64,000 bases of DNA, taken from the NCBI GenBank assembly GCA_024228275.1, contig JAAETO010000285.1, forward strand, positions 15,874-79,873, given 5' to 3'. Of this stretch, positions 1-41,374 are shown piece after piece (position 1 is the first letter of the stretch; each line of letters starts with the position of its first letter). The DNA comes from Arcobacter sp. Its GTDB lineage: Bacteria > Campylobacterota > Campylobacteria > Campylobacterales > Arcobacteraceae. The translations under genes were made by a program, and so were the position numbers. Under the pieces are notes generated by a model. That model worked only from the letters and a program-made list of their open reading frames with translations, was not told the DNA's origin and searched no databases.

Positions 1-302
1 CTTTTGAAAAGACTGCAGTAGCTCACATTATGCAAAAAGTTAAAAAACTTTTTAAGAAAAAAATACCTTTAAATTTTGCCATTGTTGGTGGTGCTAGTGC
101 TAATATAAGACTTAGAACTTCTATTGAAGAATTATGTAATAAAAATAAAACAAAACTTTTTTTAAGTGAACTAAAATATTGTAGTGATAATGCAGCTATG
201 ATAGGTCGTGTAGCAATTGAACAATATAAACAAAAAGATTTTATAAGTATAGAAGATATAGATATTCAAACGAGAATTAAAGAAAGGTCTTTACCTCTTT
301 AG
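1..302 (+). CDS. tsaD: tRNA N6-adenosine threonylcarbamoyltransferase TsaD (Kae1/Gcp family), C-terminal fragment; the 5' end lies outside the window
   Basis: The translation contains [14 protein letters not shown] and [12 protein letters not shown], typical TsaD C-terminal motifs. The reading frame is open back to the window edge ([12 protein letters not shown]...). Confidence 0.8.
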
Positions 303-374
303 AAATTGTTAATTTAAAATAACTTAGATATATCTATAAAGTATAAGTAAAAAGAGATTTAAAAAGGAATTTTA

Positions 375-701
375 ATGATATTTGAAATGGGAGCTAAATT
401 GGATGGTGATGATTTTAATACATCTAAAAATGATAAAAAAAATAAAACTTCATCTATAAAAGAAATACCTAAAAATCAACATCAATTAGTATTTACTTAT
501 GAAAAAAGAAAAGGTAAACCAGTAACACTTGTAGGAAGATTTAACATATCTGAAAAACAGAAAAAGGATATATTAAAACTTTTAAAGAAAAAACTAGCTT
601 GTGGCGGAGCAATAAAAGAAGAGTGGATTGAACTACAAGGTGATGTAAAAGATAAAATAAAAACAACTTTAGAATTGGATGGATGGAAATTTAAAAAATA
701 A
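375..701 (+). CDS. SUI1/YciH-family translation initiation factor-like protein
   Basis: 108 aa. KGKPVTLVGRF...LKKKLACGGAIKEEWIELQGD matches the SUI1 domain pattern (K-G-K-x-VT-x-V ... CGG ... IE-x-QGD). Confidence 0.8.
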   Translation: MIFEMGAKLDGDDFNTSKNDKKNKTSSIKEIPKNQHQLVFTYEKRKGKPVTLVGRFNISEKQKKDILKLLKKKLACGGAIKEEWIELQGDVKDKIKTTLELDGWKFKK

Positions 702-27727: not shown

Positions 27728-27754
27728 AATAGAAAAGCTTAGCTTCTCTATTTA
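27728..27754. terminator. bidirectional hairpin between the convergent M24 gene and nirD
   Basis: aatagaaaagc-tta-gcttctctatt (10 of 11 bp paired) with A/T runs on both sides. It overlaps the nirD stop codon. Confidence 0.45.
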
Positions 27755-28060
27755 TATTGCTATATATAAAATATCTTTTTCTATTTTACTCTCATAAGTT
27801 TTTGTACAACCACAATCATTTCCTTGTGCTTCTCCTGTTTTTAAATCGATATCCCAGTTATGTAAAGGACAAGTTACTTGATTCTCATGAACTAATCCTT
27901 CACTTAGATTACCTTGCTTATGAGGACATTCGTTATTTACAGCAAAGATAGAATTGTCTTTTGTTTTGAAAACAGCAATCTCTTTATCTTTTATTAAAAT
28001 TTTTCTTGAACCCATAAATGGGATTTCATCTATATTCGTTATTTTTACCCAGTTTGCCAT
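27752..28060 (-). CDS. nirD: nitrite reductase [NAD(P)H] small subunit NirD (Rieske-like)
   Basis: The start is placed at MANWVKI (ATG 28058-28060), 1 nt after the nirB stop, with AGGAG inside the nirB end. NECPHKQGNLSEG...TCPLHNW is the NirD Rieske-like motif. Confidence 0.85.
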   Translation of the reverse strand: MANWVKITNIDEIPFMGSRKILIKDKEIAVFKTKDNSIFAVNNECPHKQGNLSEGLVHENQVTCPLHNWDIDLKTGEAQGNDCGCTKTYESKIEKDILYIAI

Positions 28061-28061
28061 T

Positions 28062-30527
28062 TTATATCTCCTTTGCTTCAAAGTTTGTTAAGTTTTTTGT
28101 ATCAATTACAATTGGGTTGAACTCTTTTGTAAATCCAGATTCATTTGCCTCTTGCCACGGATCAACTTGTGCATATTTTTGCGATTCTTCAAATCTTAAA
28201 GCACAAGCTTCTCTATTTTTTTCATCATTTAAAATTGCATCTTTTACATAATCTAAACCAACTCTTTCTACCCAATGAGCAGTTCTTTCTAAGTAATATG
28301 CATCTTCTCTATAAAATTGTGTTAGAGCTTTTACATATTCAAAAAGTTCTTCATCTGTTTGTACTTTTGTAAAAAAGTCAGTTACTCTAACTTTTATTCC
28401 ACCATTACCAGCTATATGAATTTCCCAACCTGAATCAACGCCAATAACGCCAATATCTTTAATAGTAGCTTCTGCACAATTTCTAGGACATCCAGATACA
28501 GCTAGTTTAAATTTATGAGGAGTCCATGAACCCCAAGTTAGTCTTTCTAAATCTACACCCATTTGCATAGAGTCTTGTGTTCCAAATCTACACCATTGAT
28601 TACCAACACAAGTTTTTACTGTTCTTAGCCCTTTTGCATATGCTTGTCCTGAAACAAAACCACAATCATTTAAATCTTGCCACATAGGACCTAATTGCTC
28701 TTTTTTTACACCTAATAAATCTAATCTTTGACCACCAGTAAATTTGACAGTTGGTACATCATATTTAACAGCTATATTTGCGATATCCTTAAGTTCTTTA
28801 GGGCTTGTTAGTCCTCCCCAAATTCTAGGAACTACAGAATATGTACCATCTTTTTGTATATTTGCAGATAATCTATCATTTACTAATGCACTTCTTTTAT
28901 CATTTTTGTATTTATTGTCATTATATTTTACAAGTAAGTAATAGTTTACAGCAGGTCTACATTTTGCACACCCATCTTTAGTTTTCCAGTCAAGTTTTTT
29001 AAATACCTCATATACATTATTAAATTCATATTCATTTATATGTTTTTTAATTTCTTTATGTCCAACATCACAACAGTCACAAATACCTTCTACTGTATCT
29101 TGGTATTCATCCCCTAAAGTGTTCACTAAAATTTGTTCAACTAATCCTAGACAAGAACCACATGAAGCACCAGCTTTTGTACATGATTTTACTTCTGTTA
29201 AAGTTTTTAAGTCATTTTCTTTAATTGCATTTACGACATCGCCTTTGCATACGCCATTACATCCACAAACTTCTTCATCGTCACTCATAGAATTAACATC
29301 GTCTCCACCATGTCCTGAATCACCTAAAAGAGCAGCTTTTCCAAATAAAATCTTAGTTCTTAAATCACTTATATCAGTATGTTCTTTTAATAATTTTAAA
29401 TACCATGAAGCATCAGCTGTATCTCCATATAAAACTATACCAATAATTTTGTTATCATAAATTACAAGTTTTTTATATACTCCAACTTTTTCATCAAGTA
29501 AGATTAATTCTTCAGTTGTTTCATCTCCTAGATAATCTCCTGCTGAAAATAAATCAATTCCAGAAATTTTTAATCTTGTTGATAAGGTTGAACCTTTATA
29601 TCCTTCACTATCTTTATTAGCTAATTTCTTAGCACAAAATTTAGCTTGTTCATAAAGAGGAGCTACTAGACCATAAGTATTACCTTTATGTTCTGCACAC
29701 TCTCCAATAGCAAAAATATCTTCATCACTTGTTTGTAAGTGATCATTGACGACAATACCTTTTTTTATTTCAAGTCCTGCTTCATTTGCAAGAATAGTAT
29801 TTGGAATAATTCCAGTTGCAAAGACTACAATATTTGATATTACTTTTTCACCATCTGTAAAGCTAACTTGTTCAACTTTTTGTGAACCATGAATTTCTTC
29901 AATTGTGGTATTTAATTTAAATTCAATACCGTAACTTTCTAAATTTTTTTGTAATAATTTACCAGCAGTTGAGTCTAATTGTTGACTCATAATTGAAGCA
30001 CTTCTATGTACTAAAATAGTTTTAATACCATGCATAGCAATACCATAAGCAGCTTCAAGTCCAAGAAGACCACCACCTACAACTACAGCAGTTTTATCTT
30101 TTGAAATAAGTTCTAAAATAGTATCACTATCTAGTTTTGTTCTAAAACCAATAACGTTTTCTAAGTCACTTCCTTTTGTTTTAGGTACAAAAGAGTTTGA
30201 ACCAGTTGCAATTAAAAGTTTGTCATAGTTTAACTCTAATCCACTTTGGCTTTTAACTGTTTTTTTATTTTTATTTATAGCAATTACTTTATCACCTTTA
30301 TGCAAAGTAATATTATGTTGTTCGTACCATGTTTGATGATTTATTATTGTATCTTCAAAAGTTTTTTCACCTGATAAAAGGTATGACAACATTATTCTGT
30401 TATAGTTGAAGTGGGGTTCATCTCCAAAAATTGTGATATCATATTTATCTGTAGTAATATCAAAAAGATCTTCAATAGTACGAAGACCACTCATTCCATT
30501 TCCTATAACTATTAGTTTCTCTTTCAC
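28062..30527 (-). CDS. nirB: assimilatory nitrite reductase [NAD(P)H] large subunit NirB
   Basis: 821 aa. It has an N-terminal FAD/NAD Rossmann fold (VIGNGMSG), a BFD-like 2Fe-2S region (CGCNGVCKG, CGSCLG) and a siroheme/4Fe-4S motif (GCPRNCAE, TCVGNQWCRFG). Confidence 0.9.
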   Translation of the reverse strand: MKEKLIVIGNGMSGLRTIEDLFDITTDKYDITIFGDEPHFNYNRIMLSYLLSGEKTFEDTIINHQTWYEQHNITLHKGDKVIAINKNKKTVKSQSGLELNYDKLLIATGSNSFVPKTKGSDLENVIGFRTKLDSDTILELISKDKTAVVVGGGLLGLEAAYGIAMHGIKTILVHRSASIMSQQLDSTAGKLLQKNLESYGIEFKLNTTIEEIHGSQKVEQVSFTDGEKVISNIVVFATGIIPNTILANEAGLEIKKGIVVNDHLQTSDEDIFAIGECAEHKGNTYGLVAPLYEQAKFCAKKLANKDSEGYKGSTLSTRLKISGIDLFSAGDYLGDETTEELILLDEKVGVYKKLVIYDNKIIGIVLYGDTADASWYLKLLKEHTDISDLRTKILFGKAALLGDSGHGGDDVNSMSDDEEVCGCNGVCKGDVVNAIKENDLKTLTEVKSCTKAGASCGSCLGLVEQILVNTLGDEYQDTVEGICDCCDVGHKEIKKHINEYEFNNVYEVFKKLDWKTKDGCAKCRPAVNYYLLVKYNDNKYKNDKRSALVNDRLSANIQKDGTYSVVPRIWGGLTSPKELKDIANIAVKYDVPTVKFTGGQRLDLLGVKKEQLGPMWQDLNDCGFVSGQAYAKGLRTVKTCVGNQWCRFGTQDSMQMGVDLERLTWGSWTPHKFKLAVSGCPRNCAEATIKDIGVIGVDSGWEIHIAGNGGIKVRVTDFFTKVQTDEELFEYVKALTQFYREDAYYLERTAHWVERVGLDYVKDAILNDEKNREACALRFEESQKYAQVDPWQEANESGFTKEFNPIVIDTKNLTNFEAKEI

Positions 30528-31126: not shown

Positions 31127-32167
31127 TTAAGTCTTATCTTTTGATAGTTCGACTATTTTTTCAATATTAAAATAATATTTACCATCCTCTTCACTATATG
31201 GTATAGTACCATCTACTTCTGTAAAAACAAAAACTTTTTTGTCCTTACTTAATAGGTATGGTCTATTATTCTCATATTTAAAAAATCTATTTTTTAAATA
31301 TCTTTTATTATTTACTTCTTCACTAATATAATAATTTGAATAACCATTATGATTAAACATATTTAGATTGTGAACTGGAAAAGCATGATAGCCTTTTGCA
31401 TGATTTCTTATGGTTAATGCAACTTTTTCGTCTTTGCCGTTACCTTTAATAAAATAGTCATTTACGTAAAGTCGTTCCTCTTCAAGTGTTGCTATATCAT
31501 ATAAGATTAATTTTTCTTCGTTATCTTTTAAGAATTTTGGATGATATTGACCTGAAGCTAATCCGTAAACTCCCGCTTTATTAGCTACATGAGAGAGTTT
31601 TGTATAATCTGTTGCTGTATTAATTGCAACCTGAATTGCTGAAACAACTAATCCAATTAATCCGTTATTTCCGTCAAGTCCAGAATAAGAATAAGCATAG
31701 GCATTATTTTGCCATATTTCTTCTCCTGTATTTGCATCAAGTAAAGAAAACGATAATCCTACATCAACACTACTAGATACAACAGCATAATTAGTATCCC
31801 AGGCATTGATATCTACGTAAAGAATTGCATCAGGATTAAAAATTTCTTTCAGTTTTGATACAGGTATGCTTCTAATAAGTTCTGCATCAACTAGATTTTC
31901 ACTTTTAAAGAAACTGTCAACTAAATGGACAGGAAATACGTAATATCCTTTTTCTGACAAGGGCTTAGATATTGTATATCGAAAATGGTCAGTAGCATCT
32001 ACTGATGTTGTAGTATTTTTTGCCGGTAAAACTAAAATTGATTTAGGATGTTTAGAATATATTTTTGGGTATAAACTTCCTTTCGAAATTTGAGATTGTG
32101 ACGGAGCACAACCTGTTAAAACCATCATTGATAAAACCGCAATGATTATATAAATTGTATTTTTCAT
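31127..32167 (-). CDS. DUF799-like lipoprotein (GNA1162-type) with a ~130-aa C-terminal extension
   Basis: 346 aa with lipobox VLTGC. SILVLPAKNTTTSVDATDHF...SEKGYYVFPV...NPDAILYVDINAWDT fits the DUF799 pattern as I remember it. There is a 4-nt overlap with the upstream gene. Confidence 0.65.
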   Translation of the reverse strand: MKNTIYIIIAVLSMMVLTGCAPSQSQISKGSLYPKIYSKHPKSILVLPAKNTTTSVDATDHFRYTISKPLSEKGYYVFPVHLVDSFFKSENLVDAELIRSIPVSKLKEIFNPDAILYVDINAWDTNYAVVSSSVDVGLSFSLLDANTGEEIWQNNAYAYSYSGLDGNNGLIGLVVSAIQVAINTATDYTKLSHVANKAGVYGLASGQYHPKFLKDNEEKLILYDIATLEEERLYVNDYFIKGNGKDEKVALTIRNHAKGYHAFPVHNLNMFNHNGYSNYYISEEVNNKRYLKNRFFKYENNRPYLLSKDKKVFVFTEVDGTIPYSEEDGKYYFNIEKIVELSKDKT

Positions 32168-32532
32168 GATTCCTCACCATATAATTTTCTAATAACTCTA
32201 TTTATAAATACACTTGATTCAGGATAAGTCTCTTTTTCAAGAAGAAAATACTTTTTTGCTTTTAAAGTTTTGTTAGTTTCAAAAAGCATTTGTCCATATT
32301 CAGCGTATATACCTGGTGCAACTCTTTTTTTGGCTTCATTAGATTGAGTAATTATTTTTTTTAATTCTAATAAGTGTTCCTCTAAAACTTTCTTTTCATG
32401 ACCTTTCATACCATATTCAGACGAACTTTCAACATAATTATTCCATAAGTATAAAGGAGGTTGAGTTTGTTGACACCCTGTAAAAAGAACTATAAAAGAT
32501 GTAAATAATATAGTTTTAATATAATATTTCAT
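32164..32532 (-). CDS. DUF4810-like small lipoprotein
   Basis: 122 aa with lipobox LFTGC. YLWNNY...EEHL.EL..II....K.R.V.PGIYAEYG.ML fits the DUF4810 pattern. Its start overlaps the upstream stop (TAATG). Confidence 0.6.
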   Translation of the reverse strand: MKYYIKTILFTSFIVLFTGCQQTQPPLYLWNNYVESSSEYGMKGHEKKVLEEHLLELKKIITQSNEAKKRVAPGIYAEYGQMLFETNKTLKAKKYFLLEKETYPESSVFINRVIRKLYGEES

Positions 32533-32900
32533 TATAAATTAACCTCCACTGTGCTATTTGAACCTAAGTAAATATTTTTATTTAAAATAAAGTTGTTATT
32601 GAAATCATATACTTTTAGATTAATATTACCACTTTGAACTTCGTATAACTTATTAACTGTATCATCCTGACAATTACCAGTTTTTTTATTAACTGAACAA
32701 GCTTCTAATTGAAATTTATAGTTATCATTGATTATAATTAATAAACTTTCTTTTGCTTCTTTTGTAAATTTTAAATATCCAATATCTCTTATTTGTGTAT
32801 TTGTAGTTTTGTAATTACAACCAACAAACAATGTAGTAAATAATATTATTAATATAACAAACTTATTTTTGAACATATAATTCATCTTTTTTTGCTCCAT
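32532..32900 (-). CDS. small lipoprotein, unknown family
   Basis: Lipobox LFVGC. The true start is probably an internal Met (MNYMFKNKF or MFKNKF, 32885 or 32876). Either way it overlaps the 3' end of the CsgG-like gene. Confidence 0.55.
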   Translation of the reverse strand: MEQKKMNYMFKNKFVILIILFTTLFVGCNYKTTNTQIRDIGYLKFTKEAKESLLIIINDNYKFQLEACSVNKKTGNCQDDTVNKLYEVQSGNINLKVYDFNNNFILNKNIYLGSNSTVEVNL

Positions 32901-33813
32901 TTAAATTTCCTTCAACAAAAGTACAAATTGAACCTTCATCTGTATAGTTTGTACCAAACTGATTTAATATCTGAAGTTTAGCAATTTTTGCTCCAGGTAA
33001 TTCAACTGTCATACCTGTTTGAGGATTTTTAATACTTTTTCCCTTTTTATAAACAAATAAAGTATCTCCAATTCTAAGTCCTTGTTTAGCTCCTCCTGCA
33101 ATCATTATTGAATCGTTATTAATATCTAGAACATATGATCTCCAAGGTTTATTTAATAAGTTTTGCATTATTCCATCTACTACACTACTAATTGCTGTAG
33201 ATATTGCTTTATCATTTAAAGTTGAATCATATCCAACATGTTTACCTAAGCCAAAAGAAGTACCAGCTTCACTTTTAGCTTCACCCGCACCTTCTTGAGC
33301 AAAGATAATTTGTCCTGTTTTAACATCAATTAATCTGACACTTACTTTTGCATATGCTGTTTGAACTTTAGTTCTAGAAAAAACTCCTGTATCTGACATA
33401 TTTTTTCTGCCAAATTCAGTAACTGAACCAACAATAAGATAGTCTGAACCAATTTTTAATGATTTCAAGTTATAATCTTGTATTTCATTATTTACAATAT
33501 TAATATCATCTCTTTCAAGTAAAATAAACTTTCCTGAATTTGCAAGTTTTGCTGATAAGATATCGGTAGCTTGTTTCTCAGCAACATAATTATTGTTTAA
33601 ACCAAATAGCTTAGACTTACCATATTGAGCTTCATTACTAAATCTGGTAATTGCAACTTTTCTTTTTAAAAGAGGTTCCTCTTTTTTTATAATAAGTTTT
33701 GGTTTTTCAATTGTAGGTTTTTCAACTTTTACTATTTTATTAGAGCTTGTGGCACAACCTGTAATAAAAATAGATACTAAAACACTAATTGCAATTAATG
33801 TATATTTTCTCAT
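32863..33813 (-). CDS. CsgG/HfaB-family outer-membrane lipoprotein (curli-secretion-channel-like)
   Basis: 316 aa with lipobox FITGC. KVAITRFSNEAQYGK...ATDILSAKLANSGKFILLERDDI...YLIVGSVTEFG matches the CsgG family pattern. Confidence 0.7.
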   Translation of the reverse strand: MRKYTLIAISVLVSIFITGCATSSNKIVKVEKPTIEKPKLIIKKEEPLLKRKVAITRFSNEAQYGKSKLFGLNNNYVAEKQATDILSAKLANSGKFILLERDDINIVNNEIQDYNLKSLKIGSDYLIVGSVTEFGRKNMSDTGVFSRTKVQTAYAKVSVRLIDVKTGQIIFAQEGAGEAKSEAGTSFGLGKHVGYDSTLNDKAISTAISSVVDGIMQNLLNKPWRSYVLDINNDSIMIAGGAKQGLRIGDTLFVYKKGKSIKNPQTGMTVELPGAKIAKLQILNQFGTNYTDEGSICTFVEGNLNGAKKDELYVQK

Positions 33814-34080: not shown

Positions 34081-36291
34081 CTAAACCCCATCAGGAACAT
34101 TAACACTATGAAGTTGAACTGCACACTGTTTGTAATTTGGTTCAAAAGATTTTGGATCAAAATCATCTATTGTAATGATATTTATTAATTGTTCATTATA
34201 ATGAAAAGGAATAAATATAGCTCCAGGTCTTACATTTTGAGACTCTCTTACTATAATATTTTTTATTTTTCCTCTTATAGATGATATATCCATTCTATCT
34301 CCACTTTTAACTTTTAATTTCAAAGCATCTGTTGGATTAATCTCAATCCACGCTTCAGGAGCAAGATCATTTAATATTGATATTGTTTTTGTTTTAGTTC
34401 TTGTATGCCATTGTTCAACTGTACGACCTGTATTTAACATAAAAGGAAAATCTTTATTTTCTTCTTCTTTTAGTGGTAACCAATCTAAAGCTAAAAGTTT
34501 TGCTTTTCCATCTTGTGTAGGGCAAGACATATCCTCACTATAAAGTCTACTTGTACCTTTTGGATTAGCTTCATTACATGGCCATTGGATACCACCTAGT
34601 TCTTCAATAAGTTCATATGTCATACCAGTATAATCACAAAGTCTACCTCGACTAACTTTTTTCCATTCGTTAAAGGCGTCTTTTGGTTCTTTCCAGTTTG
34701 GATATAATTTTTCTTTAAGGTCAAAGTATTTTGAAAATTCTAATACAATATTAAAATCACTTTTTGTATTTACTAAGGGGTCAACAGCTTTTTTAGCATA
34801 ATTACATCTTCTTTCACTATTTGTATAAGTACCCTCTTTTTCACTCCATGTTGCAGCAGAAAAAACTATATCGGCATTTAATGCAGTATCGCTTTTAAAA
34901 GCATCTTGAACTACAAGTAAGTCTAGTTTTCTTAGTGCACGTCTAAGTTTATTTTGATCAGGAAATGATACAAGAGGATTAGTTGCTACAATCCATAAAG
35001 CTTTTATTTCACCTTTATCAATTGCATCAATTATTTGAGGATAGGAATATCCCCTAGAACTTGGTACATCTTCTACAGGAAGATTTACAATATTTGCATA
35101 TTCTTCTCTATCTTGTAAACTAGCAAAGTTTCTATATCCTGGTATTGATGAAGTAAAACCAGTCTCTCTTGTACCCATAGCATTACATTGACCAGTAATT
35201 GAAAGTGCTGTCGCACCTTTACGTCCAAGATTTCCAGTAATAAGTGCAAGATTACAAATAGAACTTACCGTATCTGTTCCAATAGAACTTTGGTTTACTC
35301 CCATAGTCCAAGCACTCATTGCAGCAGGAGATGAAGCATAAATTTTAGCAATATTATATAACTCTTGAACTTCTATACCTGTAATGTTTGCAACTTTTTC
35401 TGGTGTGTAGTTTTCTATTATATGTTTTTCAAACTCTTCATATCCACTCGTTCTAGTTTTAATAAATTTCTCATCTTGCCAACCTTGTTTTAAGATTATG
35501 TGACAAAGACCATTGATAAGAGCTAAATCGCTTCTAGGTTTCAACGGTACATAAATATCTGCCATTTTTGCTGTTTTAGAAACTCTAGGGTCTATAACTA
35601 TAATTGTAGGTTTTTTACCGGTTGTTTTTTCATTTTTTGCAATATGTAATTTTAAAATAGGGTGGTTATCTGCAATATTTGCTCCTATTAGCATAATTAC
35701 ATCTGCGTATGAAAAATCTTCATAACAACCAACTGGACCATCACTTCCAAAAGTCTGTTTATATCCCATAACTGCACTTGCCATACATAAAGTTGTATTT
35801 CCGTCATAGTTATTTGTTTTAAGACCCATTTGTACAAATTTTCCAAGTGTATAAAACTCTTCAGTTAAAAGTTGACCAGTTGAGATGCAGGCAATTGCTT
35901 TATTTCCATATTTCTTTTGTATATCTTTAAACTTGTCACTTGTAGTTTGAAATACTTCATTCCAAGTAGAATCTATAAGTTGACCTTGTTTTCTTATCAT
36001 AGGTTTTGTAAATCTATTTTCACTTTGAACCATCTCATGCTCACTTAATCCTTTTGGGCAAAGTGTACCTTTGTTTACAGGATGAGATGGGTCACCTTTT
36101 ATATAAACAGGTTTATTATTCTTCGTTCCTATATATAAACCACAACCCACACCACAATAACCGCAAGTACTTCTTACCCAATTAGTTGGTGCTTTATGTT
36201 TTGATATTCTTCCAAAGGTCTTGTCATTAGTTAAAGAGTATTCCTCTTCTTTTATACTTACACCTAAAAAGTTTTTAATTTTATTAATCAT
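34081..36291 (-). CDS. nasA: assimilatory nitrate reductase catalytic subunit (Mo-bisMGD, NasA/NarB type)
   Basis: 736 aa. It has the N-terminal 4Fe-4S motif CGYCGVGCG...CPKG and no twin-arginine signal. It has typical molybdopterin oxidoreductase blocks and a C-terminal beta-barrel domain. Confidence 0.85.
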   Translation of the reverse strand: MINKIKNFLGVSIKEEEYSLTNDKTFGRISKHKAPTNWVRSTCGYCGVGCGLYIGTKNNKPVYIKGDPSHPVNKGTLCPKGLSEHEMVQSENRFTKPMIRKQGQLIDSTWNEVFQTTSDKFKDIQKKYGNKAIACISTGQLLTEEFYTLGKFVQMGLKTNNYDGNTTLCMASAVMGYKQTFGSDGPVGCYEDFSYADVIMLIGANIADNHPILKLHIAKNEKTTGKKPTIIVIDPRVSKTAKMADIYVPLKPRSDLALINGLCHIILKQGWQDEKFIKTRTSGYEEFEKHIIENYTPEKVANITGIEVQELYNIAKIYASSPAAMSAWTMGVNQSSIGTDTVSSICNLALITGNLGRKGATALSITGQCNAMGTRETGFTSSIPGYRNFASLQDREEYANIVNLPVEDVPSSRGYSYPQIIDAIDKGEIKALWIVATNPLVSFPDQNKLRRALRKLDLLVVQDAFKSDTALNADIVFSAATWSEKEGTYTNSERRCNYAKKAVDPLVNTKSDFNIVLEFSKYFDLKEKLYPNWKEPKDAFNEWKKVSRGRLCDYTGMTYELIEELGGIQWPCNEANPKGTSRLYSEDMSCPTQDGKAKLLALDWLPLKEEENKDFPFMLNTGRTVEQWHTRTKTKTISILNDLAPEAWIEINPTDALKLKVKSGDRMDISSIRGKIKNIIVRESQNVRPGAIFIPFHYNEQLINIITIDDFDPKSFEPNYKQCAVQLHSVNVPDGV

Positions 36292-36303
36292 GATTATTCC
36301 TAT

Positions 36304-37896
36304 TTATGTACGTTGGTTACCAGCAAAAAAATTACCCGCAAGTCCCTGTGCTACAGCCGTTTTATAAAATAGAAGTCTTGATACTATTTCACTTGAAAAT
36401 GAAATAACAAAAGCCAAAGACAATAAAATAATAGCCTCTGTATAATTTTCAGAAGCAATAAGTAGCATTGTTAACAATGGAAGTCCAAGAGCTCCTATAT
36501 AAAGTGTAATTTCTCTATATAAGGTGTGTTTTTTAAAGTTTTTTTCATATAATGTTTTCGTTTTATTTAATTGATAAAAATTAGAATTATTTTTATCTAA
36601 ATATTTATAAAAATCACTTTCTTTAGTAAACTCTGTATATTGTAAATATGAAATAAATATTGCTATTGATATAAGAAAACTAGCACTTAAATAACAAGTA
36701 TTTACAATTAAAATAATTGATACTAATAACATACCAATATAAGATACATTGAAAAAGATTTTTGTAGTTTCTTTTTTATTCCAAGATGGTCTAGCTTTTA
36801 TTCTATAAATCATAGATTGTGAATATATACCATATATTCCAATGCTTAAAATAATTATTTCAAGACTAAGTTTAAATAATTGATTAAATTCAAAAAAGAA
36901 AACTATTAGTAATAGTGTTAATCCTAAAGCATAAAGACCTAAAGCTAAAGCTTCTCTACTTAACCATGAAGTTTTAATATTCTTCATAGCAGTATGTGCT
37001 AATATTGGACGACCTAAATGAAGTGCTGAAAGTGGTAACCCAATTGCAACAGGAATAAAAACAGCAAGAATCATCCATATATTTGGCTGATTTAAATTAA
37101 AGCCTAGAAAATTTATTAATTCATTAGCCACTATTGCAGCAAATCCACCAAGTGATATTTGAGTTAGTACTGTCATAAATACTAAAGGCAATTCAGAGTG
37201 GTTTGGTTTTATTATATGTGCATCTGCTGGAATCACTTCTTCACTTTTTTCATTTATTGTATATCTTGTTGTTGGTTTTGTTATATTTACATCTGGAAGA
37301 TGAGGTGCAATACCTTCTTTTTCTAAACCTTCATTTAACCAATCTTTAGTATTTACAACTTCAATTTCAATTGCACCTGCTGGACAGGCTTGAATACAGG
37401 CTGGTGTTTCACTTACTTCAAGTTTTTCATGACACATATGACATTTTGTTACTATTCCTCTATTATGATTAAAAACAGGAACTTCATAAGGGCAATTCCA
37501 AGTACAGTATTGACACCCTATACATGTTTCATCTTCATGGTATACTATTCCATTATCGAATTTTATATAAGATTCTGTTGGACAGCCTTTTAAACATTCA
37601 GGATCTATACAGTGATTACATGACATTGAATTAAAATGGTTTGATACATTAGGAAAAATACCACTTTGAGTTTCTCCAACTCTTCTCCATTTTATATCTG
37701 AAGGATTGTTATTTTGTTCATTACATGCAACTTCACAACAGTGGCATCCTACACAAGCTGTTGCATCAAAATGAAATCTATATTGTTCACCTTTTTTAGG
37801 CTTTTCTATATCGATACTATAGTTACCACATTGCATATCAGTTTGTGCTTTTTTATTTATAAAGCTTTCTAAAGGAGTTGATTCTTTTATACTCAT
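36304..37896 (-). CDS. fusion of a four-cluster [4Fe-4S] ferredoxin (DmsB/NrfC-like) to an eight-helix DmsC-like membrane anchor
   Basis: 530 aa. There are four Cys groups: CVGCHCCEVAC, CNHCIDPECLKGCP, CIGCQYCTWNCP, CHMC...CIQACP. About eight hydrophobic helices follow. There is no signal peptide. The stop lies 12 nt before the nasA start. Confidence 0.75.
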   Translation of the reverse strand: MSIKESTPLESFINKKAQTDMQCGNYSIDIEKPKKGEQYRFHFDATACVGCHCCEVACNEQNNNPSDIKWRRVGETQSGIFPNVSNHFNSMSCNHCIDPECLKGCPTESYIKFDNGIVYHEDETCIGCQYCTWNCPYEVPVFNHNRGIVTKCHMCHEKLEVSETPACIQACPAGAIEIEVVNTKDWLNEGLEKEGIAPHLPDVNITKPTTRYTINEKSEEVIPADAHIIKPNHSELPLVFMTVLTQISLGGFAAIVANELINFLGFNLNQPNIWMILAVFIPVAIGLPLSALHLGRPILAHTAMKNIKTSWLSREALALGLYALGLTLLLIVFFFEFNQLFKLSLEIIILSIGIYGIYSQSMIYRIKARPSWNKKETTKIFFNVSYIGMLLVSIILIVNTCYLSASFLISIAIFISYLQYTEFTKESDFYKYLDKNNSNFYQLNKTKTLYEKNFKKHTLYREITLYIGALGLPLLTMLLIASENYTEAIILLSLAFVISFSSEIVSRLLFYKTAVAQGLAGNFFAGNQRT

Positions 37897-38125
37897 GTTA
37901 GTATCCTAGTTTTTATTTTATTTGTTTAATTGATAGTTTAAATAATACTTTAGAATCAAAACTTTCAAAACTCTCTTTTTCTAATTTTTAGTAACTCTTT
38001 TGTTATAAGATTTGCTTTATATATATTATTATAACAGTTAAAAAAAGCATAAATAAAATTTGTTTGTATATTATATATACAATATTAGATTAAATAGCTG
38101 TATAATTAAAAAACAAAAATAATTA

Positions 38126-39748
38126 TCAATTATTTATTAATAAAATTATATTAATAATCAATAAAAAATAAAATCCAACTTTATAAAATTTTAATGGATC
38201 TCTTTGTAAAAGAGGAGTTTCCTTATTAAAAAATGGTTTAATTTTATTTGTATTTTCAAGTTCAAAAAGCATATGCGAATAGTTTTTATATCTTAAGTCT
38301 TCATCTACACTTATAGCTCTTAAAATTAGACTTTCTAACCAATTTGGTAGATTGTTATTATATGTTTTTGGATTTTTAGCTTTTTTAAAATTAGGATTTT
38401 GAAATGGTTCTATATCTCCATATGGAAGTTTTCTTGTAAGACTTTCGTAAAGGCTTACCCCTATAGAAAATACTTCTGTTTTTTCATTTATAAAAGAATC
38501 TTTAAATCGTTCAGGTGCTAAATATGTAGGAGTTCCAGCTCTAGAGTTTACAGAATAAATTTCTGTAATAGAACCAAAATCAATTACTTTAAATATTTTT
38601 TTACCATCACGTTCTAAGATAATTATATTTTCAGGTTTTATATCTCCATGAACTAAATCATATTTTAGTAAATATTGACTCATATGCAAAAGTGTTTTTG
38701 CTAATAAAATAGTTTCTTCAATAGATAAAGCTCTTTTCTTTAGGTATGATTTTAACGTGATACCATCAAGTCTTGTCATAAGATAATATCTTGCAGTACG
38801 ATTTTTAGGTACAACTGTTTTTGGAAAGAATCCAGCTTTTAGTCTCTTTGCATTCCATACTTCTTTTACAAATAAATCTAAAATCTCTTCGTTGTCTATT
38901 GCTTCAAGTGGAGCAAATTTAATTACATATTCGATACCTTTTTTTTCACAAAGCCAAGTTCTATTATTTTGTATTAAAGATAGTTTTAATTTATAACCGT
39001 CAATTTCATCGTCTTTTTTTAATTTTTTAGGAATACTTAGAGATAATTTTTTAAGCTTTGAAACTTCATCAGTATCTAAAATATCAATTATAATAGCACT
39101 AGTGTCATCTGGCAGATTGTCCTTTACTGTTTTACTAGCTTTTTTTACGAGTACACTAGCACTATATTTCATATATTTTAATAACGATTCATCATCTAAT
39201 AGTGAATATAAACCATCACTACAAAGTAAAATAGAGTCATCTTTTAGTATATTATTTTCAAAATAAAAGATTTCTACATCTTCTTCTATACCAATTGCAT
39301 TGCTTAAAACATTATCCATTCCATCTTCATTGTGATCAAGAGATAGTTGTTTTAGTTTATTATCTCTTTTTATATAAATTCTACTATCACCAACATTTGC
39401 ACCATATAATCTATCTCCATCAATTACAACGATAGCTAAGGTAGTTACAAGTTCTGGTCTTTGATATTGAACAATAGATTCTTGATATAAAATTGTGTTA
39501 ATAGAGTTTATAAAAAATTTTATTGATTTTTCTACACTCCAAGCAAGTGGCCTATTTTTAAAATTATTTATAAGATGAGTACTTACTCTTTTAGCGGCTT
39601 CAGCTCCAGCACTAGCTGATCCAACTCCATCACATAAAACTGCAATAGCAATATTATTTGTAATTTTAATATCAATAAAATCATCACCTACAAGTTCTTG
39701 CCTTTTTGCAAGTGTAAATCCTGATGTTTTAATATTACTTTTAGCCAT
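38126..39748 (-). CDS. bifunctional PP2C-type Ser/Thr phosphatase + Hanks-type Ser/Thr kinase with a C-terminal TM anchor
   Basis: 540 aa. PP2C motifs are LCDGVGS, GDSRIYI, LLCSDGLYS and DDTSAIII. Kinase motifs are HGDIKPENIII, DFGS and GTPTYLAPE. The C-terminal hydrophobic tail is VGFYFLLIINIILLI. Confidence 0.8.
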   Translation of the reverse strand: MAKSNIKTSGFTLAKRQELVGDDFIDIKITNNIAIAVLCDGVGSASAGAEAAKRVSTHLINNFKNRPLAWSVEKSIKFFINSINTILYQESIVQYQRPELVTTLAIVVIDGDRLYGANVGDSRIYIKRDNKLKQLSLDHNEDGMDNVLSNAIGIEEDVEIFYFENNILKDDSILLCSDGLYSLLDDESLLKYMKYSASVLVKKASKTVKDNLPDDTSAIIIDILDTDEVSKLKKLSLSIPKKLKKDDEIDGYKLKLSLIQNNRTWLCEKKGIEYVIKFAPLEAIDNEEILDLFVKEVWNAKRLKAGFFPKTVVPKNRTARYYLMTRLDGITLKSYLKKRALSIEETILLAKTLLHMSQYLLKYDLVHGDIKPENIIILERDGKKIFKVIDFGSITEIYSVNSRAGTPTYLAPERFKDSFINEKTEVFSIGVSLYESLTRKLPYGDIEPFQNPNFKKAKNPKTYNNNLPNWLESLILRAISVDEDLRYKNYSHMLFELENTNKIKPFFNKETPLLQRDPLKFYKVGFYFLLIINIILLINN

Positions 39749-39832
39749 TGTATAACCTTTTAATATCTAAATTAAATTTTCTAAAAATACTTAATTTAGA
39801 TATAAAAAGAGGCAAGCTCTTTTTATATTATT

Positions 39833-41113
39833 TTAAATTCTTCCACCTGCGACAACTCCCCAAGTAGTTCTCCATCTAGTTTTAACTAAACTAATTCCAG
39901 AAATTGCGATTACTACAACACCTGCAAAAATTAAAAATCCAGCACTGTATCCATCAAAAGCACCTTTTGACCATCCTAAAGTTTGAATTAATGCTGTTCC
40001 TCCAAGACCACCTGCACATCCTACTAGACCCGTCATGATACCTATATCTTTTCCAAACCTTTGAGGTACTAGTTGAAAAACAGCTCCATTAGCCATACCA
40101 AGACATGCCATAGTTAAAAATAGGATAATAATAGCAACAAAAAATGGTAGTATAACTAATGCATTAATAACAGCTAGACAAACAACCATTCCATAGAAGA
40201 AGTATAAAGATTTTACTCCACCGATTTTATCAGCAATATTACCACCAACAGGTCTTAATATAGCACCTGCAAAAATACATAAAGCTCCAAAATAACCCGC
40301 AATAACTTTTACATTACTTTCATTTAACATGTCTAATCCAAATACAGACATATCAGCTTGATATGTGTTCATTAAATATACTTTCATGTATCCTGCAAAG
40401 CCAACAAAGCCACCAAATGAAACTGCATAAAATAGCGAAAACCACCATGTATCTTTATCTTTTAATAGTTTACCATAATCCGATAACTTTTTTGGGTTTG
40501 CTTTATATACAGATTCAGGCGCATCTTTTGCTAGGAATAAATATGCAATAAATACAATAATTGCCATAAATGCTCCAACCCCAAATACTGTATTCCAACC
40601 CCAAATTTCAGCAATTTTTGGTGCAAATAAGAAATCAACAACAACACCAATATTACCAGCTCCTGCAATACCAAGTACAACTCCTTGAAGTTTTGGTGGA
40701 TACCATTGACCAGCTTGTGGAAGTGCAACTGCAAATGAAGCTCCTGCAAAACCAAGACCCAGTGCAACTATAAGAAGTTGATTATAAGTAATACTATCAC
40801 CTTGTAAATAAGTACTTAAAAGTGCAGCTATTACAATAGATTGAGAAATAAGCGCAGTTGTTTTCGCACCTAATTTATCTACACCAAAACCTAATACAAT
40901 TCTTAAAATTGCTCCTGATAGTATTGGAAGTGACAGTAATGTAGCTTTTTCGCTTGCAGACATTATATAACCATTTAAAGCTAATGCTTCACTTATTTCA
41001 GTACTTAAAGGGCCTAACATTGTCCATACCATAAAACTCATATCAAAATATAAGAAAGCCATAAACAGTGTTGCTGTATGTCCTTGACCTTTTAAATCCT
41101 TTAATCCTGCCAT
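39833..41113 (-). CDS. narK: MFS nitrate/nitrite transporter (NarK/NasA-transporter family)
   Basis: 426 aa with 12 TM segments. The Gly-rich NNP signatures are GFGVDKLGAK and GLVGCAGGLGG. Confidence 0.8.
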   Translation of the reverse strand: MAGLKDLKGQGHTATLFMAFLYFDMSFMVWTMLGPLSTEISEALALNGYIMSASEKATLLSLPILSGAILRIVLGFGVDKLGAKTTALISQSIVIAALLSTYLQGDSITYNQLLIVALGLGFAGASFAVALPQAGQWYPPKLQGVVLGIAGAGNIGVVVDFLFAPKIAEIWGWNTVFGVGAFMAIIVFIAYLFLAKDAPESVYKANPKKLSDYGKLLKDKDTWWFSLFYAVSFGGFVGFAGYMKVYLMNTYQADMSVFGLDMLNESNVKVIAGYFGALCIFAGAILRPVGGNIADKIGGVKSLYFFYGMVVCLAVINALVILPFFVAIIILFLTMACLGMANGAVFQLVPQRFGKDIGIMTGLVGCAGGLGGTALIQTLGWSKGAFDGYSAGFLIFAGVVVIAISGISLVKTRWRTTWGVVAGGRI

Positions 41114-41374
41114 TAAAAATTCCTTTTAAATATTCTTAAAATAATTATATAATGAAAAGTATGAAATTTTGGCATTTGTCTGTATAAAATATATCCAATA
41201 TTTTAAAAATATTAGTATATAAAATATTGATTATATTGTATACACAATATTTCTTAATGATTATATCACTTCAAAAGATTAAATAAATAAAACATGATAT
41301 TATTAAATAGGGTGGATAGAGCTTTTATATAATAGAGATTATAAGAGAAGAATAAATCTTCTCTTATATATTTG

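Follow-up and report, generated by a model that had tools for sequence, protein, structure and literature searches.

We analyzed a 64,000-nucleotide stretch of DNA from Arcobacter sp. (contig JAAETO010000285.1; hereafter, the window), in which a gene next to narK encodes a PP2C-type protein phosphatase fused to a Hanks-type serine/threonine kinase. Textbook accounts place bacterial nitrate assimilation under transcriptional control (NtrBC, NasR, NasST, NtcA), and we know of no established post-translational control mechanism for NarK-type uptake in heterotrophic bacteria. The fusion protein retains its catalytic residues and a membrane tether, its gene is strictly linked to narK, and a motif in the C-terminal tail of NarK covaries with the kinase. 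On this basis, we infer that the tail-anchored enzyme would phosphorylate and dephosphorylate NarK at Thr416/417 and thereby gate nitrate uptake, a mechanism whose chances we put slightly above even.

Catalytic residues and membrane anchor of the fusion protein

The open reading frame was confirmed on the minus strand, which the initial annotation had left unstated. The size that it had given, 540 amino acids, was correct, as were its distances to narK (84 nt) and to the following gene (229 nt) (Table 1). The protein was compared with the Pfam profiles of the PP2C/PPM families (PF13672 and PF00481) and of Hanks-type kinases (PF00069). PP2C_2 matched residues 16-204 with 64.2 bits (cut-off 24), the PF00481 PP2C profile scored 37.4 bits (cut-off 20.3), and Pkinase matched residues 270-487 with 82.9 bits (cut-off 31.7). 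The four phosphatase motifs quoted earlier were found at the expected positions (DGVGS, 40-44; GDSRIY, 120-125; SDGL, 177-180; DDTS, 214-217). The kinase half carries HGDIKPEN (367-374), DFG (390-392), and APE (411-413), with K277 (in VIKF) as the catalytic Lys and E296 (in KEVW) as the αC Glu. The claim that all key kinase motifs are present held for these, but it had missed the absence of the GxGxxG Gly-rich ATP-binding loop; this loop was sought in the kinase half, where residues 257-264 read LIQNNRTW and are glycine-free.

The layout is an N-terminal PP2C domain, a C-terminal kinase domain, and one C-terminal transmembrane helix, with no extracytoplasmic domain. The proposed hydrophobic anchor was recovered as the sole hydrophobic stretch of the protein (520-540), modeled as a helix at 518-538. 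No sensor domain was detected by the profile scan and the family alignment, and no PASTA domain by the NCBIfam scan, in which the Stk1/PknB and Stp1/IreP equivalogs (NF033483 and NF033484) remained below their cut-offs (103.9 vs 450 and 108.7 vs 230, respectively).

To these results we added an alignment of 48 diverse full-length homologues drawn from an exhaustive HMMER search. In the PP2C half, D23, D40-G41, G120-D121, and D178-G179 were invariant and D214 was at least 90% conserved; the metal-binding Asp residues of PP2C motifs 1, 2, 5, 8, and 11 aligned with the motifs of tPphA. In the kinase half, E296, N374, G392, E413, and R486 were invariant, and K277, H367, D369, and D390 were at least 90% conserved. 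The transmembrane helix and a juxtamembrane PLLxRxPxxFW motif were also conserved across the homologues. An AlphaFold2 model built on the homologue alignment (pLDDT 93.5, pTM 0.88) superposed through its PP2C half on PppA, tPphA, Stp1, and PstP, with target-normalized template-modeling (TM) scores of 0.80-0.86 and a flap region shorter than that of tPphA. The kinase half superposed on Staphylococcus aureus PknB/Stk1 and Mycobacterium tuberculosis PknB with scores of 0.76-0.79. By these matches, the model shows the β-sandwich fold of PP2C enzymes in one half and the bilobal kinase fold in the other. Among the solved structures compared with the model, no chain spanned both halves. Judged from the alignment and the model, both domains look catalytically competent throughout the family. 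The initial annotation had named inactive domains on closer alignment as a possible outcome; catalytic residues were kept in both halves, whereas the Gly-rich loop was missing.

The loop was missing from all 48 aligned homologues, and a conserved Arg (R263) stands in its place. This family-wide absence, together with a catalytic loop that reads HGD and not HRD, would be explained if the kinase half were a pseudokinase or scaffold and only the PP2C domain were catalytic, reversing another kinase or acting on a non-protein substrate. We consider this improbable: K277, E296, D369, N374, D390, and E413 are conserved in more than 40 diverse homologues, which is unexpected for a dead kinase, R263 occupies the loop position, and a second Hanks kinase that could supply the phosphate was not found in the source genome.

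Linkage to NarK and the RWRTTWG tail motif

To define the genetic partner of the fusion gene, its neighbors were compared across related loci. In 20/20 Arcobacteraceae loci, narK lies directly before the kinase gene, and the gene after the kinase differs. A wider scan, made with a 13-sequence alignment on a single genome from each species, yielded 80 loci in Campylobacterota, Verrucomicrobiota, Thiotrichales, Methylophilaceae, Burkholderiales, Microbulbifer, and Alcanivorax, 66 of which had enough upstream DNA. In 52 of the 66 loci, a window-type NarK was encoded on the same strand fewer than 700 bp upstream, and in six it was encoded 1-6 kb upstream; a second NarK-family subtype lay directly upstream in another six (two were checked against TIGR00886, 328-339 bits), and two had no NarK upstream. 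Overall, a NarK-family gene was directly upstream of the kinase in 58/66 loci. The downstream gene encoded the 663-aa NasA paralogue, NirA, NirB, the Fe-S/DmsC protein, or an unrelated product, or was lacking.

The co-occurrence with NarK that the initial annotation had raised held in both directions. A kinase orthologue was present in 24 of 121 genomes of the family and in 45 of 401 Campylobacterota genomes, and intact NarK or NarK, respectively, was found in the same 24 and the same 45, although genomes within a clade are related and these counts overstate independence. The kinase was absent from two genomes with a narK pseudogene. The Verrucomicrobiota sample yielded three orthologues in 201 genomes, too few for a co-occurrence test. 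The NarK-kinase pattern spans at least eight families.

A second class of PP2C-kinase paralogues, about 30% identical and 570-580 aa long, follows the gene of a formate/nitrite-family (FNT) channel and precedes nirBD; in some genomes a cyanase gene lies between the FNT gene and the paralogue. The FNT tails at these loci share H(V/I)KTGxKRxL. This class was not found in the source genome. In both classes the neighbor that stays constant is not a reductase but a transporter of anions, and the two transporter folds are unrelated. Because the downstream gene varies, NarK upstream is constant, and the paralogue follows an FNT channel, the constant partner of the fusion kinase is, as judged from gene order, the transporter and not the reductase. 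Of the two phosphorylation targets suggested at the outset, NarK or the reductase, the comparative evidence thus fits NarK, whereas the variable downstream gene does not fit the reductase.

Linkage by genomic hitch-hiking, with a function unrelated to nitrate, appears very improbable. One distant paralogue (26% identity), located beside a TerD/PRTase/StiP stress-response cluster (L063, 7209-8921), would be in keeping with it, but adjacency and co-occurrence persist in at least three phyla through many rearrangements of the surrounding genes.

We further examined the C-terminal tail of NarK. In 50/50 kinase-adjacent NarKs, the protein ends with VK.RWRTTWG followed by 7-9 residues. Ten further NarK copies also carry the RWRTTWG tail, two of them upstream tandem duplicates and eight encoded 1-6 kb from the kinase. 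RWRTTWG (413-419) was the only 7-mer that was 100% identical in 47 aligned kinase-linked NarKs, being conserved more strongly than the NarK nitrate-signature motifs, and its Thr416 and Thr417 are candidate phospho-acceptors. The topology of the major facilitator superfamily (MFS) is established, and homology with Escherichia coli NarK and NarU places the tail after the last transmembrane helix, on the predicted cytoplasmic side. The motif was absent from three NarK-like proteins of nar (respiratory) clusters in the same phylum.

An even sample of 331 Pseudomonadota genomes was scanned for the back-translated motif. Of 25 matches, 21 were read; the four left out were the locus of the centre genome itself (L137) and three identical contig-end copies in one genome. 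Nineteen of the 21 were genuine NarK tails, and the other two were out-of-frame chance matches. All 19 tails had a PP2C-kinase gene adjacent to narK, 15 downstream on the same strand and four divergent. NarK itself was also searched in the same sample, and the tails of motif-less copies were read. Three NarKs of the same clade (44-46% identical; within L207-L211) end in SWRRHWG, RWRARW, and RWRLHW, in which both Thr residues are replaced and the WR..W scaffold is kept, and none of their three genomes encodes a PP2C-kinase fusion. This paired loss on a retained scaffold points, at the sequence level, to the hydroxyl residues themselves. A distant NarK clade ends in IRWTRTWAE(K/R)GGRAR, with a divergent fusion gene in three of four loci (L212, L216, and L218); this tail may be a variant target motif.

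In the mechanism that we favor, the fusion protein would be a dedicated partner of the NarK encoded directly upstream, with its C-terminal helix holding the kinase and PP2C domains at the inner membrane face beside the transporter. The likeliest substrate would be the short cytoplasmic tail of NarK, VK(T)RWRTTWG, which would be phosphorylated on Thr416 and Thr417. Phosphate would be added to this tail by the kinase and removed by the PP2C domain, so that the kinase:phosphatase balance would set the share of transport-competent NarK. By analogy with Ser501 of plant NRT2.1 and the phosphatase CEPH, phosphorylated NarK may be the off state. Because the fusion protein has no sensor domain, the input signal would be cytoplasmic or would come from the conformation of NarK itself. 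The outcome would be fast post-translational control of uptake, layered on transcriptional nitrogen control. The core idea of the initial annotation, control of uptake by a kinase/phosphatase pair, fits all of the comparative evidence, with the target now narrowed to NarK.

The same motif could have another role if NarK were a co-sensor (transceptor). The fusion protein would then dock on RWRTTWG and read the state of NarK, with its substrates elsewhere (e.g., a nitrogen regulator, PII, or one of the nitrate and nitrite reductases), and the module would signal nitrate availability. A docking site would be expected to show the same strict conservation of the tail, the fusion protein itself lacks a sensor domain, TT persists in one lineage that has no kinase, and the fusion protein, as the sole Hanks kinase found in the source genome, could have wider targets. 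The source genome also has two PII genes; however, a gene for a GlnD-like uridylyltransferase adjoins both, so PII needs no phospho-control, and we down-weighted PII as a substrate for this reason. Both Thr residues were lost together in the three kinase-less NarKs with the flanking WR..W kept, and no candidate regulator covaried with the narK-kinase pair in the loci read. We therefore regard a co-sensor role as rather unlikely, although it is the strongest of the alternatives.

Several observations weigh against phosphorylation of the NarK tail as the function of the module. The tail could be conserved because the fusion protein docks there and not because it is phosphorylated. In one lineage (two genomes, G802 and G710), TWRTTWG is kept although neither genome encodes a fusion; the threonines therefore also have, or can have, another role. 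The tails of the FNT channel and of the second NarK subtype (Microbulbifer and Alcanivorax) lack RWRTTWG, yet these transporters are paired with branches of the family. The paralogue in the TerD cluster indicates that the wider family is not restricted to nitrogen transporters. Kinase activity is not assured because the Gly-rich loop is absent, and the relatedness of the genomes bears on the co-occurrence counts given above. Finally, no experimental or functional study of the family in any organism was found in the literature searched (PA1782, PP_2091, ppkB, and nas clusters).

Organization of the nitrate-assimilation locus

The features of the window are listed in Table 1. The neighboring genes for NarK, the Fe-S/DmsC protein, the NasA-like protein, and NirBD identify the locus of the fusion gene as a genuine nitrate-assimilation locus.

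Table 1. Positions of the fusion gene, its protein domains, and associated features. Genomic coordinates refer to the window unless a locus of a relative is named; aa, residues of the encoded protein.
Feature	Position	Strand	Remarks
Bifunctional PP2C-kinase gene	38126..39748	minus	540 aa; Pfam, alignment, AlphaFold2 model, and motif positions
PP2C phosphatase domain of the fusion protein	aa ~16-225		
Linker of the fusion protein	aa ~226-262		
Hanks-type non-RD kinase domain of the fusion protein	aa ~263-500		
Juxtamembrane motif PLLQRDPLKFYK of the fusion protein	aa 512-523		
C-terminal transmembrane helix of the fusion protein	aa ~520-540		
NarK-family nitrate/nitrite MFS transporter gene	39833..41113	minus	426 aa; TIGR00886, 232 bits
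NarK C-terminal tail VKTRWRTTWGVVAGGRI, predicted cytoplasmic	aa 410-426; coding 39835..39885	minus	proposed target or docking site
narK-kinase spacer	39749..39832	minus	two hairpins; minimum free energy -17.5 kcal/mol, z = -3.0
Fe-S (DmsB-like) and DmsC-like membrane anchor fusion gene	36304..37896	minus	neighbor, outside the kinase module
NasA/NasC-like molybdopterin oxidoreductase gene	34081..36291	minus	without Tat signal; neighbor
nirB	28062-30527	minus	TIGR02374, 905 bits
nirD	27752-28081	minus	with nirB, assimilatory nitrite reductase; completes the pathway
Perfect palindrome TGTATATTATATATACA	38065..38081	none	within the 229-nt gap, ahead of the Fe-S/DmsC-nasA unit
One-mismatch copy of the TGTATA-N5-TATACA palindrome	41181..41197	none	upstream of narK
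FNT-linked PP2C-kinase paralogue loci in relatives	L171 6461-9517; L174 5188-7849; L033 14971-16581		

The spacer between narK and the kinase gene folds into a terminator-like hairpin (AAAGAG-loop-CTCTTTTT), followed by a second hairpin formed by a long AT-rich palindrome. This two-hairpin layout was found in 12/20 related Arcobacteraceae loci, where the stems differ in sequence and the pairing is kept; in the remaining loci the spacer is 0-39 nt long. The hairpin layout of the 84-nt spacer suggests that narK and the kinase gene are co-transcribed and that less kinase than transporter is produced. The hairpins may set a low kinase:transporter ratio, or may serve as a processing or operator site.

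The palindrome in the 229-nt gap has the form TGTATA-N5-TATACA. With the near-copy upstream of narK, it is probably a nitrogen-regulator operator that marks a separate promoter, and by the same evidence the nasA unit probably has its own promoter; two such matches are not rare by chance in the AT-rich window, being reached in 15/100 shuffles. Consensus scans for promoters and terminators were uninformative in this AT-rich DNA (45 promoter-like sites vs 49 expected). Separate control of the nasA unit would leave narK and the kinase gene as the functional unit. The fusion gene does lie between narK and the nasA unit, as the initial annotation had it, but its description as embedded in one nitrate operon is weakened by the palindrome, which makes the nasA unit probably separate.

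This arrangement also bears on whether the target could be the downstream reduction machinery, that is, the Fe-S/DmsC-NasA complex or NirBD. The fusion gene sits between narK and the reductase genes in the window, and nitrate reductase is phospho-regulated in plants. Nevertheless, the downstream neighbor is not conserved between genomes, the reductase unit has its own palindrome-marked upstream region, and the co-occurrence is with NarK; a reductase target is accordingly given little probability.

No Tat or Sec export signal was found in the NasA-like molybdoenzyme or in the Fe-S/DmsC protein. A periplasmic (respiratory) reading of the molybdoenzyme was considered and ruled out on this ground; the absence of export signals from both proteins suggests that the pair is a cytoplasm-facing, quinol-linked assimilatory nitrate reductase (34081-37896). 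The pair recurs beside the kinase in Verrucomicrobiota loci at 34-40% identity. Four lipoprotein genes (CsgG-like, unknown, DUF4810, and GNA1162-like) lie between nasA and nirB at 31127-33813 on the minus strand; in several relatives, nirB directly follows nasA without these genes.

In most Arcobacteraceae relatives the 663-aa NasA paralogue follows the kinase gene, often together with NirA, and a divergent NrtABC transporter is present. On comparison of 41114-41374 and 37897-38125 with the loci L032, L035, and L067, the window was found to lack the NasA paralogue, ferredoxin-type NirA, and NrtABC, and the best NirA-like match elsewhere in the source genome was only 27% identical. Because these components are missing, only NarK, the Fe-S/DmsC-NasA pair, and NirBD remain for the source genome to rely on.

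Significance and comparison with known systems

Taken together, the fusion protein and the RWRTTWG tail may form a self-contained bacterial phospho-gate on nitrate uptake that is found in at least three phyla and is convergent with the NRT2.1-Ser501/CEPH switch. It could be the long-sought rapid (e.g., ammonium-triggered) shut-off of NarK in heterotrophic bacteria, and the FNT-linked paralogue could do the same for nitrite or cyanate channels. We hold this broader proposal as tentative, with chances somewhat short of even. If it is true, NarK would represent an unusual case among bacteria, a transporter served by its own Ser/Thr kinase-phosphatase. The family is widespread among marine and soil bacteria (Arcobacteraceae, Sulfurovum, Sulfurimonas, Verrucomicrobiota, Pseudomonas-like, and Burkholderiales genomes) and offers a sharply defined, testable candidate consisting of one enzyme, one transporter tail, and two threonines. 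The value lies in a precise and cheap experiment on the two threonines rather than in the particular gene copy of the window.

Two homologues (P0037 and P0040, 70% identity) carry the NCBI name 'bifunctional protein-serine/threonine kinase/phosphatase'. The genome paper of Pseudomonas sp. UW4 (2013) described the cluster nasST-nasA-ppkB-nasDEC-cobA and, drawing on Arabidopsis and Hansenula as analogies, suggested transporter phosphorylation (PMC3596284). For P. aeruginosa, PA1782 appears in a list of kinases as predicted and uncharacterized only (PMC11197903). A 2025 survey reported PP2C+Pkinase as a recurrent architecture, mainly in Pseudomonadota, with no link to nitrate (PMC12088040). The initial annotation was aware of no mechanistic description, and none appeared in the literature searched, but the family had been named, its architecture catalogued, and the same hypothesis put forward in 2013. 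The idea of transporter phosphorylation is not novel, and the gene in the window is an ordinary member of a known, experimentally untouched family.

Among the closest known counterparts are ppkB of strain UW4 and PA1782 of P. aeruginosa, which were compared by description only. Like the gene in the window, ppkB is a Ser/Thr kinase gene immediately downstream of a NarK-type gene in a nitrate-assimilation cluster. The Pseudomonadota nas-cluster homologues share with the window the PP2C-kinase-transmembrane layout and an RWRTTWG-tailed NarK, and full-length matches between the window protein and the proteobacterial branch are about 26-30% identical. Unlike the ppkB cluster, the window belongs to Campylobacterota, has a quinol-type Fe-S/DmsC-NasA unit, and has no NasS/NasT.

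The PknB/PstP and Stk1/Stp1 pairs of Gram-positive bacteria resemble the fusion in that a Hanks kinase and a PP2C phosphatase with matching catalytic folds are encoded together. They differ in being two separate proteins, with an RD kinase that has a Gly-rich loop, extracellular PASTA sensors, and pleiotropic targets. Cyanobacterial PphA (tPphA) is a PP2C phosphatase involved in the short-term control of nitrate uptake, the role proposed here for the fusion protein. In both sequence and structure, tPphA ranks among the best matches of the PP2C half. PphA acts on phospho-PII and not on a transporter, is soluble, and is not fused to a kinase; the source genome has a GlnD-like enzyme to modify PII.

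Among characterized systems, the nearest analogue is plant NRT2.1, which phosphorylation at the C-terminal Ser501 inactivates and the PP2C phosphatase CEPH reactivates. This results in rapid on/off control of high-affinity nitrate uptake (PMC10944928). The likeness to the system proposed here includes the transporter superfamily (nitrate/nitrite porter, NarK/NRT2), a cytoplasmic C-terminal phosphosite, and removal of the phosphate by a PP2C enzyme. In plants, however, kinase and phosphatase are two distinct proteins, soluble or of receptor type, that act under systemic peptide signaling, and the phosphorylated residue is a Ser whose surrounding sequence is unrelated, whereas in the window the two activities are fused, membrane-tethered, and encoded beside the transporter. 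The likeness is most likely convergent and, if the proposed mechanism is true, it would represent a striking convergence with the regulation of plant NRT2.1.

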